Source of the DNA: Escherichia coli
GTDB taxonomy: Bacteria > Pseudomonadota > Gammaproteobacteria > Enterobacterales > Enterobacteriaceae
DNA: 64,000 nucleotides
Direction: 5' to 3' (one strand)
Assembly: GCF_013122565.1 (NCBI RefSeq)
Contig: NZ_CP053258.1
Positions within the stretch are counted from its first letter, which is position 1. The number at the start of each line of letters is the position of its first letter. Position numbers and translations under genes: made by a program. Below, one piece after another: positions 16,120 through 34,638 of the stretch. The notes under the pieces are model-generated. The model had not been told where the DNA came from, ran no database searches, and saw only the letters and a list, made by a program, of their open reading frames with translations.

Positions 16120-16464
16120 GTGACTTCATTACAACTCTCAATCGTCCATCGTCTACCGCAGAACTTTCGCTGGTCTGCTGGTTTCGCAGGTTCGAAGGTT
16201 GAACCGATTCCGCAAAATGGACCGTGCGGTGACAACAGCCTGGTGGCGCTTAAATTGCTTAGCCCGGATGGTGATAATGCATGGTCGGTGATGTACAAAC
16301 TAAGCCAGGCGTTAAGCGACATCGAAGTTCCATGTTCGGTGCTGGAGTGTGAAGGTGAGCCGTGCCTGTTTGTAAATCGCCAGGACGAGTTTGCTGCAAC
16401 ATGCCGATTGAAAAATTTTGGTGTGGCAATTGCCGAACCCTTTTCAAACTACAATCCTTTTTAA
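16120..16464 (+). CDS. yejG: Uncharacterized protein YejG
   Basis: 114-aa ORF at the conserved position between bcr and yejF. Confidence 0.75.
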
Positions 16465-28334: not shown

Positions 28335-28907
28335 TTAGTCAGCACGCCCCATATAACGGCGTTCTTCGATATGGATACGAATTTTTTCGCCCGGGCTTAA
28401 GTATTCTGGTACCTGAATCACCAGACCAGTGCTCAATGTCGCCGGTTTGTTACGGGCGCTGGCAGATGCACCTTTGATGCCTGGTGCGGTTTCAACGATT
28501 TCCAGATCAACGGTCTGCGGCAGCTCAAGCGCCAGCAATTGACCGTCCCAGGTCAGCACCTGCATGTCCGGCATCCCGCCCTCTGGCATAAACAGCAACT
28601 CTTCTTCAATCTGATCTTTGGTGAAGGTATACGGGGTATAGTCTTCTTTATCCATAAAGACATATTCGTTACCATCGACATAGGAGAAGTCAACGTAACG
28701 GCGGGTCAGCGTCACGGTGTCAACGATATCATCACCTTTGAAACGCTCTTCTACTTTCAGCCCGGTACGGACATCAGAAAAACGCATTTTGTACAGCGTA
28801 GCGGCACCGCGGGCAGTGGGCGACTGAATATCAATGTCCTTAACCAGCAGCAGTTTGCCGTTGTAATTCAGTACCATACCTTTTTTAATTTCGTTCGCTC
28901 TTGGCAT
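28335..28907 (-). CDS. yeiP: Elongation factor P-like protein YeiP (EfpL)
   Basis: Translation [26 protein letters not shown]… (190 aa), EF-P fold paralog; the longer ORF in the track is an upstream extension. Confidence 0.85.
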
Positions 28908-29061
28908 CGAAAAATTCCTGTAGTCGAAAATGTCAAAAATATCGCGACAAAGTACTCGCGACGGGCCTTTCGGGCAAGTGGTATTCGCACTTTTGCTGGT
29001 GCAAAAAAGGTGGTACTGTGCGCGCTCATCAATCCGGTGGTTAACCTTAAGAGAACAACGT

Positions 29062-29316
29062 ATGGAATGCCGTCCGGGTTGCGGGGCGTGTTGCACTGCC
29101 CCTTCAATTTCCAGCCCTATTCCCGGTATGCCAGATGGCAAGCCCGCCAATACGCCCTGCATTCAGCTTGATGAACAGCAACGCTGTAAAATTTTCACCT
29201 CGCCACTGCGGCCGAAAGTCTGTGCAGGCTTACAAGCCAGCGCTGAAATGTGCGGTAACTCGCGTCAGCAGGCAATGACCTGGCTTATCGATCTGGAAAT
29301 GCTGACCGCGCCTTAA
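29062..29316 (+). CDS. yeiW: Cysteine-rich small protein YeiW (UPF0153)
   Basis: 84-aa [19 protein letters not shown]… with about 8 Cys; convergent with setB and sharing an overlapping stop (TTAA). Confidence 0.7.
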
Positions 29317-30494
29317 ACATCTTTAATCCGCAGTAAGCAAAACAGAGTGGCGATAATCATCACCATCGCAAACCAGAACACAGCGTGATAATTCCAGATC
29401 TCGGCGACGATGCCCGCCACTGATCCTGCGATGATCCAGCCCACGCGCGACGTGTTGGTATAGAGCGTGGTGGCTGAACCTGCCTGACCGGGCATCAGAT
29501 CCTGAAAATAGAGCATCCCGATGCCGCCCAGAATGCCAATAAAAATAGCATTTAGCAGCTGCAAGCCCAACAGAATGACAGGTGAATGCGCCATCAGCAT
29601 TCCTGCGTAAAAACAGACGCCACCCACGGCAGCAACGCGCATTAAGAAACGCTTACCCAGACGTTTGGCGAAATATCCGGCAATCAACATGGTCGGGATT
29701 TCCAGCCCGGCGGCGGTCCCCATCATCACACCGGCCAGTTTCTCGGGAAGATGGAGTTCGTTGATAATAAATAGCGGCATGTTGATGATGTACAGGCTGT
29801 TCGAGCCCCACATCAATGTACAAATGACAAACAGCAGCAGCGTATTGCGACGGTTACGGCGCGGCGCTTCAAGCGTGCCGGTCGCCAGCGGAAGCTCTTT
29901 TTGCATCGACGGTAAAAACAGCCATACCATCACGCCGCAAACAATAAACGCTACCGCTGCGCTCAGATACATTACCGTAAAGCTGAAACCCATCGCTAAG
30001 GCATAAGCCAGCGGCGGGCCAATGACCCATGCCAGTGAAACCTGAGCGCGTAAAAAAGAGCTGAACATCACCGCTTCACGTCCGGTTTTGTCGGCATGTT
30101 CACGGGCAAGGGCAAACATTTGCGGGTTAGCGGTCGAGCCAAAACTGCTAAGAAAGACGCCAACGAATAGCAAAACAAAGTAGTTGCGATTCCAGGCAAA
30201 AAGGGTGCAGGCCAGCACGCCTAACAGGCAGCAAAAGACAATCAGCGATTTGCGATCGCCGCGCTTATCAGAGCGCCCGGCGAGAAACTGACTTACCAGA
30301 ATCCCAATGACAGCGCTGCCGGTAAAGAAGAATCCCACCATCGCCGGACGGGCATGTACTTCATCGGTAAGAAAAATACTGAGTGTCGGGGTTTGCAGAG
30401 CGCCCGCAATACCGGTGAGAAAGGCAACGATTAAAAACGCCGTCGAGGTCAGGTCAAACGATTTCGCGCTGGAGACTGCGGGGGAGTTATGCAT
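29313..30494 (-). CDS. setB: MFS sugar efflux transporter SetB
   Basis: 393-aa, 12-TM MFS protein; conserved position upstream of fruB, divergent. Confidence 0.85.
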
Positions 30495-30759
30495 GCTGGT
30501 CGATCACTGGAAGAGGAAGACGCGGAGTTTACGCTGCTTGTCAGAAAATAAACAGACAGCGAAATCAAAAGCGCCACGAATAATCAAAATGCCATTTCAC
30601 TGTTGCTGATTTGCTGCTGACGCTGCTGAAATGAAATTGCTGATAACGGATTTTCCCATCAGCAATTAGGAAAAATGACAAAAAATTGTGCAGCACATCA
30701 AACTTTCGCTCATAACTTTACGGCATTCCTTGCGTGCAGAAACAGAAGTATTATGCTTT

Positions 30760-30775
30760 CTTGAAACGTTTCAGC
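30760..30775. promoter_or_regulatory. Cra (FruR) operator O1 in the fruBKA promoter
   Basis: Near-perfect palindrome cTTGAAACGTTTCAgc matching the Cra consensus (TGAAACGTTTCA). Confidence 0.65.
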
Positions 30776-30826
30776 GCGATCTTGTCTTTAACCCTAAGCC
30801 AGGTTGGCGCTTTTTTTCTCATAGAG

Positions 30827-30847
30827 GCTGAATCGTTTCAATTCAGC
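30827..30847. promoter_or_regulatory. Cra (FruR) operator O2 in the fruBKA promoter/leader
   Basis: Palindrome GCTGAATCGTTTCAATTCAGC located 15 nt upstream of the fruB ATG. Confidence 0.6.
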
Positions 30848-30861
30848 AAGAGAGGAGAACT

Positions 30862-31992
30862 ATGTTCCAGTTATCCGTACAGGACATCCATCCGGGCGAA
30901 AAGGCCGGAGACAAAGAAGAGGCGATTCGCCAGGTCGCTGCGGCGCTGGTGCAGGCCGGTAATGTAGCAGAAGGCTACGTCAATGGCATGCTGGCGCGCG
31001 AACAGCAAACCTCAACGTTCCTCGGCAATGGTATTGCTATTCCCCACGGCACTACCGACACCCGCGATCAGGTGCTGAAAACCGGCGTTCAGGTATTTCA
31101 GTTCCCGGAAGGCGTCACCTGGGGTGACGGTCAGGTAGCGTACGTAGCGATCGGTATTGCTGCCAGCTCGGATGAGCATCTGGGCCTGCTACGCCAGCTG
31201 ACCCACGTACTGAGCGATGATTCCGTTGCTGAACAACTGAAGTCAGCAACAACAGCAGAAGAACTTCGCGCATTGCTGATGGGCGAAAAGCAGAGTGAGC
31301 AGCTGAAGCTCGACAACGAAATGCTGACGCTGGATATCGTCGCCAGCGATCTGCTGACTCTTCAGGCGCTTAACGCTGCGCGTCTGAAAGAAGCGGGAGC
31401 AGTTGACGCCACTTACGTCACCAAAGCCATCAATGAACAACCGCTGAACCTCGGACAGGGCATCTGGCTGAGCGATAGCGCCGAAGGCAATCTGCGTAGC
31501 GCGATTGCGGTAAGCCGTGCGGCAAATGCTTTTGATGTGGACGGCGAAACGGCAGCCATGCTGGTGAGTGTGGCGATGAATGACGATCAGCCCATCGCGG
31601 TTCTTAAGCGTCTCGCTGATTTGTTGCTCGACAATAAAGCTGACCGCTTGCTGAAAGCGGATGCGGCAACGTTGCTGGCGCTGCTGACCAGCGATGATGC
31701 GCCGACCGACGACGTGTTAAGCGCGGAGTTTGTGGTGCGCAATGAACACGGCCTGCATGCTCGTCCAGGTACCATGCTGGTCAATACCATTAAACAATTT
31801 AACAGTGATATTACCGTGACAAACCTTGATGGCACCGGCAAACCGGCAAACGGACGTAGTCTGATGAAAGTTGTGGCACTTGGCGTTAAGAAAGGTCATC
31901 GCCTACGCTTTACCGCCCAGGGTGCAGATGCTGAACAGGCGCTGAAAGCCATTGGCGAAGCTATCGCTGCTGGTCTTGGGGAGGGCGCATAA
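30862..31992 (+). CDS. fruB: Fructose PTS diphosphoryl transfer protein FruB (IIA-Fru plus FPr/HPr-like domain)
   Basis: 376-aa ORF; N-terminal IIA-like domain and C-terminal HPr-like domain (…[11 protein letters not shown]…). Confidence 0.9.
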
Positions 31993-32930
31993 TGAGCAGA
32001 CGTGTTGCTACTATCACCCTTAATCCGGCTTATGACCTTGTTGGTTTCTGCCCGGAAATTGAACGCGGCGAAGTGAACCTGGTGAAAACCACCGGTCTGC
32101 ATGCGGCGGGTAAAGGCATCAACGTGGCCAAAGTATTAAAAGACCTGGGAATTGATGTCACCGTTGGCGGCTTCCTGGGTAAAGACAATCAGGATGGTTT
32201 TCAGCAACTGTTCAGCGAGCTGGGCATTGCCAACCGTTTCCAGGTTGTACAGGGGCGCACCCGAATTAACGTTAAGCTGACGGAAAAAGACGGCGAAGTG
32301 ACCGACTTCAACTTCTCGGGTTTTGAAGTCACTCCCGCCGACTGGGAACGCTTTGTGACTGATTCTCTGAGCTGGCTCGGTCAGTTCGATATGGTCTGTG
32401 TCAGCGGAAGCTTACCGTCAGGCGTCAGCCCGGAAGCGTTCACCGACTGGATGACTCGCCTGCGTAGTCAGTGCCCTTGCATTATCTTTGATAGTAGCCG
32501 TGAAGCGTTAGTAGCAGGTTTGAAAGCGGCACCGTGGTTGGTGAAACCTAACCGCCGCGAGCTGGAAATCTGGGCAGGCCGTAAACTGCCTGAAATGAAA
32601 GATGTGATTGAAGCTGCGCATGCGCTGCGTGAACAAGGTATTGCGCATGTTGTTATTTCACTGGGTGCCGAAGGCGCGCTTTGGGTTAATGCCTCCGGCG
32701 AATGGATCGCCAAACCACCGTCAGTCGATGTCGTAAGCACCGTTGGCGCAGGGGATTCTATGGTTGGTGGCCTGATTTATGGCTTGCTGATGCGTGAATC
32801 CAGTGAACACACACTGCGTCTGGCGACAGCTGTTGCAGCCCTGGCGGTAAGTCAAAGCAATGTGGGTATTACCGATCGTCCGCAGTTGGCCGCAATGATG
32901 GCGCGCGTCGACTTACAACCTTTTAACTGA
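31992..32930 (+). CDS. fruK: 1-phosphofructokinase
   Basis: 312-aa PfkB-family kinase (…GAGDSMVGGLIYGL…); start overlaps the fruB stop. Confidence 0.9.
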   Translation: MSRRVATITLNPAYDLVGFCPEIERGEVNLVKTTGLHAAGKGINVAKVLKDLGIDVTVGGFLGKDNQDGFQQLFSELGIANRFQVVQGRTRINVKLTEKDGEVTDFNFSGFEVTPADWERFVTDSLSWLGQFDMVCVSGSLPSGVSPEAFTDWMTRLRSQCPCIIFDSSREALVAGLKAAPWLVKPNRRELEIWAGRKLPEMKDVIEAAHALREQGIAHVVISLGAEGALWVNASGEWIAKPPSVDVVSTVGAGDSMVGGLIYGLLMRESSEHTLRLATAVAALAVSQSNVGITDRPQLAAMMARVDLQPFN

Positions 32931-32946: not shown

Positions 32947-34638
32947 ATGAAAACGCTGCTGATTATTGACGCTAATCTCGGTCAGGCACGCGCCTATATG
33001 GCGAAGACCCTGCTGGGCGCGGCGGCGCGAAAAGCAAAACTGGAAATCATCGACAATCCGAACGACGCTGAAATGGCGATTGTTCTCGGTGATTCCATCC
33101 CGAACGACAGCGCGCTGAACGGTAAAAATGTCTGGCTGGGCGATATTTCCCGGGCAGTTGCGCACCCTGAGCTGTTCCTGAGCGAAGCCAAAGGCCATGC
33201 GAAACCTTACACTGCGCCGGTCGCTGCGACAGCACCGGTTGCCGCCAGCGGTCCGAAACGCGTAGTTGCGGTGACTGCTTGCCCGACTGGCGTAGCACAC
33301 ACCTTTATGGCGGCTGAAGCCATTGAAACCGAAGCGAAAAAACGTGGCTGGTGGGTGAAAGTTGAAACCCGTGGTTCTGTTGGCGCGGGTAATGCAATCA
33401 CTCCAGAAGAAGTAGCCGCAGCGGATCTGGTGATTGTGGCGGCAGATATCGAAGTGGATCTGGCGAAATTTGCTGGTAAACCGATGTATCGTACCTCTAC
33501 CGGTCTGGCGCTGAAGAAAACCGCGCAGGAACTGGATAAAGCGGTTGCTGAAGCAACGCCGTATGAACCGGCGGGCAAAGCTCAAACGGCGACCTCTGAA
33601 GGTAAGAAAGAGAGTGCAGGCGCATACCGTCACTTGCTGACGGGCGTCTCTTACATGCTGCCGATGGTCGTTGCAGGTGGTCTGTGTATCGCGCTTTCTT
33701 TTGCTTTTGGTATCGAAGCGTTTAAAGAGCCGGGTACGTTGGCAGCGGCGCTGATGCAGATTGGTGGTGGTTCAGCCTTTGCGCTGATGGTGCCGGTACT
33801 GGCAGGTTACATTGCCTTCTCCATTGCCGATCGTCCGGGTCTCACGCCGGGTCTGATTGGCGGTATGCTGGCGGTCAGCACCGGTTCTGGCTTCATTGGC
33901 GGTATTATTGCGGGCTTCCTGGCTGGTTACATTGCGAAGTTAATCAGTACGCAACTGAAACTGCCACAGAGTATGGAGGCGCTGAAACCGATCCTGATCA
34001 TTCCGCTAATTTCCAGTCTGGTGGTCGGTCTGGCGATGATCTACCTGATCGGTAAACCGGTTGCTGGCATTCTCGAAGGGTTGACTCACTGGCTGCAGAC
34101 CATGGGGACTGCGAATGCGGTTCTGCTGGGGGCGATCCTCGGTGGCATGATGTGTACTGACATGGGCGGTCCGGTAAATAAAGCAGCGTACGCATTCGGT
34201 GTGGGTCTGCTGAGTACTCAAACCTATGGCCCGATGGCGGCGATTATGGCGGCAGGTATGGTGCCACCGCTGGCAATGGGTCTGGCAACAATGGTGGCGC
34301 GTCGCAAATTTGACAAAGCGCAGCAGGAAGGTGGCAAAGCCGCTCTGGTTCTTGGTCTGTGCTTTATTTCGGAAGGTGCAATTCCGTTTGCTGCTCGTGA
34401 TCCGATGCGTGTGCTGCCGTGCTGTATCGTGGGTGGGGCGCTGACTGGCGCAATCTCAATGGCGATTGGTGCGAAACTGATGGCACCGCACGGTGGTCTG
34501 TTTGTTCTACTGATCCCTGGCGCTATTACGCCTGTATTGGGTTACCTGGTAGCAATTATTGCCGGTACGCTGGTGGCGGGTTTGGCCTATGCCTTCCTGA
34601 AACGTCCGGAAGTGGACGCAGTAGCGAAAGCAGCGTAA
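32947..34638 (+). CDS. fruA: Fructose PTS permease IIB'BC component
   Basis: 563-aa ORF with duplicated IIB domains (CPTGVAHT) and an IIC membrane domain. Confidence 0.9.
   Translation: MKTLLIIDANLGQARAYMAKTLLGAAARKAKLEIIDNPNDAEMAIVLGDSIPNDSALNGKNVWLGDISRAVAHPELFLSEAKGHAKPYTAPVAATAPVAASGPKRVVAVTACPTGVAHTFMAAEAIETEAKKRGWWVKVETRGSVGAGNAITPEEVAAADLVIVAADIEVDLAKFAGKPMYRTSTGLALKKTAQELDKAVAEATPYEPAGKAQTATSEGKKESAGAYRHLLTGVSYMLPMVVAGGLCIALSFAFGIEAFKEPGTLAAALMQIGGGSAFALMVPVLAGYIAFSIADRPGLTPGLIGGMLAVSTGSGFIGGIIAGFLAGYIAKLISTQLKLPQSMEALKPILIIPLISSLVVGLAMIYLIGKPVAGILEGLTHWLQTMGTANAVLLGAILGGMMCTDMGGPVNKAAYAFGVGLLSTQTYGPMAAIMAAGMVPPLAMGLATMVARRKFDKAQQEGGKAALVLGLCFISEGAIPFAARDPMRVLPCCIVGGALTGAISMAIGAKLMAPHGGLFVLLIPGAITPVLGYLVAIIAGTLVAGLAYAFLKRPEVDAVAKAA

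Follow-up and report, generated by a model that had tools for sequence, protein, structure and literature searches.

The palindromes at 30760-30775 (O1) and 30827-30842 (O2) are almost certainly two classical operators of Cra (FruR; LacI/GalR family) that control fruBKA on an E. coli-type chromosome. They were analyzed within a 64,000-nucleotide stretch of DNA, here called the window. Neither operator is upstream of the promoter. Both very probably lie at or after the transcription start, and they flank a conserved leader RNA element. The Cra operators of fruBKA are already known biology. The conserved terminator-like and anti-Shine-Dalgarno element of the leader is the sole part beyond the literature consulted, and even its RNA 3' end had been tabulated publicly before. 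The features are collected in the table.

Features of the fruBKA operon and its regulatory region in the window
Feature	Position	Strand	Remarks
Probable -35 hexamer TTGCGT of the fruB promoter	30730..30735	+	TTG invariant, C in 99 of 114 species; assigned from conservation as the likely -35
-10 region	30749..30758	+	TATTATGCTT in the E. coli lineage, xAGACT at 30753-58 in most other species; putative
Cra operator O1 (fruBproximal in the literature)	30760..30775		CTTGAAACGTTTCAGC; overlaps the start, about +1 to +15
Approximate transcription start	30761	+	Back-calculated from the operator centres as quoted in PMC7897506; uncertain by a few bases
Leader hairpin P1	30774..30810	+	Basal helix 30774-30782:30802-30810, variable apex; MFE fold
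U-run (T7)	30811..30818	+	Conserved, directly 3' of P1; published RNA 3' end
Pyrimidine tract, putative anti-Shine-Dalgarno arm (P2 5' side)	30813..30820	+	TTTTTCTC; MFE fold and pair counts
Cra operator O2 (fruBdistal in the literature)	30827..30842		GCTGAATCGTTTCAAT; in the 5' leader
TTCAGC hexamer, half-site-like, putative P3 3' arm	30842..30847	+	Complementary to the O2 left half, GCTGAA, 30827-32
fruB Shine-Dalgarno region (P2 3' side)	30852..30859	+	GAGGAGAA; MFE fold, alignment and pair counts
fruB	30862..31992	+	Fused PTS fructose IIA/HPr-like protein; NF008319, 684 bits, full length; also fruB in E. coli annotations
fruK	31992..32930	+	1-phosphofructokinase; NF007068, 646 bits
fruA	32947..34638	+	PTS fructose IIBC; NF007984, 1173 bits

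The two palindromes match the Cra operators of K-12 fruBKA

The window read cttgaaacgtttcagc at 30760-30775 and gctgaatcgtttcaattcagc at 30827-30847. The preliminary description, which had been made from the sequence alone, gave these coordinates and sequences correctly, as well as the distance of 15 nt to the fruB ATG; 14 bases intervene between 30847 and 30862. It also took the whole second sequence as a match to the Cra palindrome, which held for 30827-30842 and failed for the full 21-mer. O2 ends at 30842, an extra TTCAGC extends the sequence to 30847, and the shifted register (30832-30847) scored 1.19 bits. This score ruled out both the 21-mer as two overlapping operators and TTCAGC as a second operator. 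The operators sit 19-102 nt upstream of fruB, and their dyad centres in the window are 67 bp apart.

The literature was searched with the exact operator sequences, and PMC11157272 was the sole match. Its Table 1 gives fruBproximal as TTCTTGAAACGTTTCAGC and fruBdistal as GAGGCTGAATCGTTTCAA, both credited there to Ramseier 1993, and these natural fruB operators were used in that study for Cra binding work. They correspond to 30758-30775 and 30824-30841 of the window. The comparison with the K-12 fruB promoter, which the preliminary description had proposed, showed that both sites were base-for-base equal to those of K-12 MG1655. The 376-bp intergenic region aligned with that of MG1655 without gaps and with six substitutions, all upstream of 30739, which spare the operators, the invariant -35 TTG, the hairpin, the U-run, and the Shine-Dalgarno sequence. 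As no difference lies beyond 30738, the sequence from the palindromes through the ATG is identical to that of K-12.

The published Cra consensus is GCTGAAnCGnTTCAGC (PMC7897506), alternatively written gcTGAAtCGaTTCAgc. The 12-bp core TGAAWCGWTTCA was present exactly twice in the 64 kb, in O1 and O2 alone (0.02 expected), and 0 of 100 shuffles had two copies. The 16-mer GCTGAAWCGWTTCAGC with at most two mismatches also matched O1 and O2 only (0.08 expected); with three mismatches, one further match appeared at 16198, at chance level. Both operators had two mismatches to this 16-mer, a perfect 12-bp core, and the palindrome with its central CG.

A symmetrised log-odds matrix was built from ten non-fru K-12 Cra sites, taken from the promoters of pykF, ppsA, pck, aceB, icd, fbp, epd, pfkA, edd, and adhE. 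Each training site was the single best upstream consensus match of its promoter, and the runner-up was well separated each time. With this matrix, which contained no fru sequence and was not fully independent because its training sites were picked by consensus, the best match in the 64 kb was at 30827 (18.25 bits), followed by 30760 (17.97 bits); the third-ranking position, with 12.76 bits, trailed both by more than 5 bits. The training sites themselves scored 10.8-20.3 bits, a range that includes both values. When 64-kb sequences were simulated 200 times with a first-order Markov model, matches of at least 17.97 bits averaged 0.035 per sequence, and none of the simulations had two. Poor scores in such a scan had been named beforehand as the result that would speak against Cra; the two sites instead scored highest. 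Identity to the published K-12 operators and the top matrix scores thus bore out their assignment to Cra.

Genes and strain context

The genes fruB, fruK, and fruA were named by full-length matches to NCBIfam equivalog HMMs, and all three are on the plus strand, in agreement with the annotation and orientation proposed earlier. The fruB start is at 30862 (ATG 30862-30864), and its ORF has 376 codons. The divergent gene upstream of fruB is setB, followed by yeiP/efpL. The mechanical ORF at 28335-29162 on the minus strand encodes 275 aa, and its match to YeiP/EfpL (a 187-aa profile) is limited to residues 87-274; the true yeiP/efpL start is probably about 86 codons further inside this ORF. On the K-12 map, cra is distant from fru and hence was not expected within the 64-kb window.

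The intergenic region of the window was 98-99% identical to that of E. coli. Of 5426 complete E. coli genomes, 5413 had the setB-fruB intergenic region as a single copy with 94-99% identity, and 4385 carried the 119-nt fruB leader with at least 99% identity.

Both operators are conserved in Enterobacteriaceae

A search with a degenerate DNA pattern that covered FruB codons 1-12 gave 120 loci from different Enterobacteriaceae species. All 119 loci with enough upstream sequence, the window included, contained both operators, with exactly two consensus matches each. Measured from the fruB ATG, the operator starts in these 119 loci were 99-105 nt upstream for O1 and 33-39 nt upstream for O2. The centres of the two operators were 67 bp apart in 65 loci and 66 bp apart in 50, and the remaining 4 loci had 68-69 bp. 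The mean identity to the window base was 0.97 for O1 and 0.92 for O2; that of the neighbouring non-coding DNA was 0.5-0.58. For O1, 14 of the 16 positions were invariant in 114 species. O2 varied only at its two central W positions and in the final 2-3 bases, as a site bound by protein would be expected to.

At the W positions of O2 (30833 and 30836), T..T was found in 46 species, A..A in 67, and T..A in 6. The combination A..T, the symmetric form that is always present in O1, was never found there.

Both operators very probably overlap or follow the transcription start

The preliminary description had the two operators flanking the fruB promoter, which was wrong. As quoted from Ramseier 1993 in PMC7897506, the E. 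coli FruR sites are centred at +7.5 and +73.5 downstream of the fru start. The name "proximal" for the upstream site in PMC11157272 implies the same geometry. In the 114 species, an invariant TTG(C) at 30730-33 is located at a fixed distance of 32 +/- 1 nt from O1, and in most species xAGACT follows 17 bp after the invariant TTGC. The -10 region was conserved at A30754 (108 of 114 species), A30756 (105 of 114), and T30758 (114 of 114). An RNA 3' end with its upstream hairpin is situated between the operators, indicating that transcription starts upstream of 30774. The published centres as quoted, the upstream -35, and the transcribed stretch between the operators together place O1 over the start and O2 in the leader. 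Repression by Cra would go with such a position over or downstream of the start.

Escherichia species carry GTATTATGCTT where most other Enterobacteriaceae keep xAGACT. As the -10 region depends on the lineage, the start point may shift by a few bases between genera.

It is very unlikely that the palindromes truly flank an active fruB promoter, with O1 upstream of it and O2 over the start. TTG hexamers do occur between the sites, at 30782-87 and 30804-09 (TTGTCT or TTGGCG as -35), O2 includes a -10-like TTCAAT, and the simple sigma-70 consensus scan of 30450-30900 was decisive nowhere, with no match at threshold. A promoter at this place conflicts with the literature as far as it is quoted above, which puts both sites downstream of the start and calls the upstream one proximal, and with the best conserved -35-like TTG (30730-32), which is upstream of O1 at its fixed distance. 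It also conflicts with the stretch between the operators, which is constrained as plus-strand RNA with a 3' end at 30818 and needs a start before 30774.

A terminator-like hairpin is located between the operators

The multi-species profile contained an unexpected conservation island, G.TGGCGC.TTTTTTCTCAT, at 30803-30822. RNAalifold analysis of the 114-species leader alignment returned only a trivial O1-O2 pairing without covariation. Our own structure was then tested by pair counting on the same alignment. For hairpin P1, 89% of the cells were paired, and 6 of the 9 pairs were changed on both sides. The compensatory changes ran from GCGCGATC/GGTTGGCGC in Escherichia to GCGTCATC/GGTGACGC in Citrobacter and Klebsiella and GCGCTATC/GGTTAGCGC in Enterobacter. 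The median dG of P1 was -14.7 kcal/mol (z = -2.9 vs shuffles), and its GCGC/GCGC basal pairs were followed by U7. At least 7 U were found among the 9 nt after P1 in 84 of 114 species. Over the whole three-helix structure, 92% of the cells were paired vs 44-60% in slid controls, and 0 of 500 shuffles reached the observed covariation, with relatedness among the 114 species only partly controlled in these and the other covariation figures.

The Term-seq data of Adams et al. 2021 (Supplementary file 3) contain an RNA 3' end at K-12 2263539(-), 44 nt upstream of the fruB ATG. This position corresponds to 30818 of the window, the first base after the T-run. In LB at OD 0.4, the end was supported by 218,310 reads. 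Its Rho score, 0.26, classes it as not Rho-dependent, its intrinsic terminator score is 9.61, and the entry names no regulatory element. The main text of Adams et al. 2021 does not mention this fruB leader 3' end.

Other searches for a known element gave little. Rfam (E <= 10, 30450-30950) returned noise matches to eukaryotic families only, the K-12 annotation has nothing at the leader hairpin, and nothing specific was found in the literature on a fruB leader, attenuator, or sRNA. A simple terminator consensus scan of 30450-30900 also found none; it missed P1 because the loop is long and the stem is imperfect. By its anatomy, P1 with the U-run looks like an intrinsic terminator, with a hairpin followed by a U-run, a mapped 3' end, and compensatory changes. 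No convincing antiterminator structure was found in the 12-nt 5' tail or the leader folds; we therefore call P1 terminator-like rather than a regulated attenuator.

The pyrimidine tract may pair with the fruB Shine-Dalgarno region

In the MFE fold of the full leader, the U/C tract paired with the Shine-Dalgarno region; this register is offset by two bases from the P2 pairing tested across species. For P2 (30813-30820:30852-30859), 92% of the cells were paired across the 114 species. A compensatory change from CUC:GAG to CAC:GUG (UA 92, AU 8) was present in 8 sequences from several genera, and a second compensatory pair was UA in 95 and AU in 10. Both P1 and P2 are rich in G-U pairs. They paired better as plus-strand RNA than on the minus strand (89% vs 74% for P1; 92% vs 66% for P2), indicating that the constraint acts on the fruB sense transcript. 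The U/C tract thus looks like an anti-Shine-Dalgarno arm against the fruB Shine-Dalgarno sequence.

The MFE fold also contained P3, a 6-7-bp hairpin (GCUGAAU/AUUCAGC) nested inside the anti-Shine-Dalgarno:Shine-Dalgarno fold. The P3 pairs were kept in 94-98% and were invariant. TTCAGC at 30842-47 was about 96% conserved, and its spacing to O2 varied by 1-4 nt between species. Such variable spacing is tolerable in a hairpin loop and not in a protein site of fixed geometry; TTCAGC is therefore best explained as a hairpin arm.

These pairings raise the question of whether the operators are conserved for the structure of the leader RNA, through O1:O2 pairing or an O2 hairpin, and not for protein binding. 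We consider this extremely unlikely. O1 pairs with O2 over 11 invariant pairs in RNAalifold, and the O2 left half pairs with the conserved TTCAGC. The O1:O2 pairs, however, are without covariation, O2 varies only at consensus W positions, the Cra matrix from unrelated sites ranks both operators top, and identical sequences are published as Cra-binding operators. Dual use as a DNA site and an RNA arm is possible, and the two are non-exclusive.

LacI/GalR operators commonly share a central CG and A/T-rich arms, and those of RbsR and PurR resemble each other. That O1 and O2 belong to another LacI-family repressor with a similar half-site is nevertheless practically negligible as a reading, as the sites are identical to the K-12 Cra operators of PMC11157272, score highest under a Cra-only matrix, and belong to an operon that is de-repressed in cra mutants (PMC10100716).

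Conserved elements upstream of the promoter

The region 30605-30665 contained an array of the pentamer GCTGA, which is the core of the Cra half-site. Direct copies were found at 30605, 30616, 30625, and 30639, and an inverted copy at 30659. The array is 111-171 bp upstream of the setB ATG and holds an inverted repeat, TTGCTGA-N15-TCAGCAA, with a loop of 3-15 nt depending on the species. On average, 3.5 GCTGA copies were found per 90 nt in the 114 species vs 0.14 in shuffles. The repeats were ruled out as full Cra operators, with 4.7 bits as the best score.

A conserved block, AAATGTGC-N6-TC.AA.TT, was located at 30684-30706, centred about 66-70 bp upstream of the start, and its TGTG, TC, and AA were invariant in the 114 species. 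Genomic SELEX has identified a single CRP site in the fruBKA-setB spacer (PMC3105977), and this block is a candidate for it. In a CRP consensus scan of the window, the match at 30687 was no better than chance (26 matches vs 26 expected).

Comparison with known systems

The window has the same O1 and O2 sequences, 67-bp spacing, and distance to the fruB ATG as fruBKA of E. coli K-12 and Salmonella (Ramseier et al. 1993). The gene order, setB <> fruB-fruK-fruA, is also the same, and the operators are without difference. The fruB gene of Vibrio cholerae is under a regulator of the same family with the same 16-bp consensus. It has three FruR sites, one of which is located between -35 and -10, and transcription is activated by FruR with F1P (PMC7897506), whereas the window has two sites, which overlap or follow the start, and here the regulator is a repressor. 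The lac operon likewise has a LacI-family repressor with the primary operator at the start and a second one downstream. LacI is a tetramer that loops DNA; for Cra, looping is only a hypothesis, possibly via FruK bridging (PMC11157272). By arithmetic, the operator spacing of 66-67 bp is short and leaves the two operators about 0.4 helical turn out of phase.

For the leader, the closest published item is the list of 5'-UTR 3' ends of Adams et al. 2021, in which the fruB -44 end appears with its intrinsic score and no sign of Rho dependence. The conservation, the covariation, the anti-Shine-Dalgarno pairing, and the position between Cra operators are what the present analysis adds.

A possible mechanism of repression

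Cra footprints on the O1 and O2 sequences as double-stranded DNA have been reported for K-12. Loss of repression in cra deletions has been reported for Salmonella and E. coli, and the release of Cra by fructose 1-phosphate is established. Cra on O1 would hinder the binding or the escape of RNA polymerase, as O1 covers +1 to +15. Cra on O2, about 73 nt past the start and just before the ribosome-binding site, would most plausibly be a second barrier. Import of fructose by FruBA would produce fructose 1-phosphate, which releases K-12 Cra (PMC11157272), and the operon would be de-repressed.

In the published Term-seq data of Adams et al. 2021, the short leader RNA is abundant in fructose-free media, which fits poorly with O1 alone shutting off initiation. 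The abundant short RNA could equally be a stable end-product of leaky transcription or arise from 3' trimming to the hairpin. The edge of O2 is at a fixed 9 nt beyond the U-run.

Tentatively, and with a probability that we regard as low, much of the fruBKA repression may take place after initiation, through Cra at O2, the terminator, and masking of the Shine-Dalgarno sequence, with a riboregulatory leader between the operators (a terminator, an anti-Shine-Dalgarno arm, and a clamp formed by an arm of O2). The leader would then comprise the P1+U7 terminator with its 3' end at 30818, the U/C tract would double as the anti-Shine-Dalgarno arm, and the O2 left half would double as a hairpin arm clamping the anti-Shine-Dalgarno:Shine-Dalgarno helix. 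Speculatively, Cra at O2 might stall or slow RNA polymerase at the terminator and so raise termination, and the anti-Shine-Dalgarno helix might mask translation of read-through RNA. The short leader RNA might also act in trans. The link between the leader element and Cra is one that we infer. If repression after initiation is true, it would explain the abundant short RNA without fructose and give O2 a function.

The operators fix the identity and orientation of fruBKA, and the regulatory region is intact in the window. The corrected geometry matters to models of Cra repression, as neither site acts ahead of the start point. The leader element suggests an unstudied RNA layer in a classic repressor-operator system and a testable role for the second operator.
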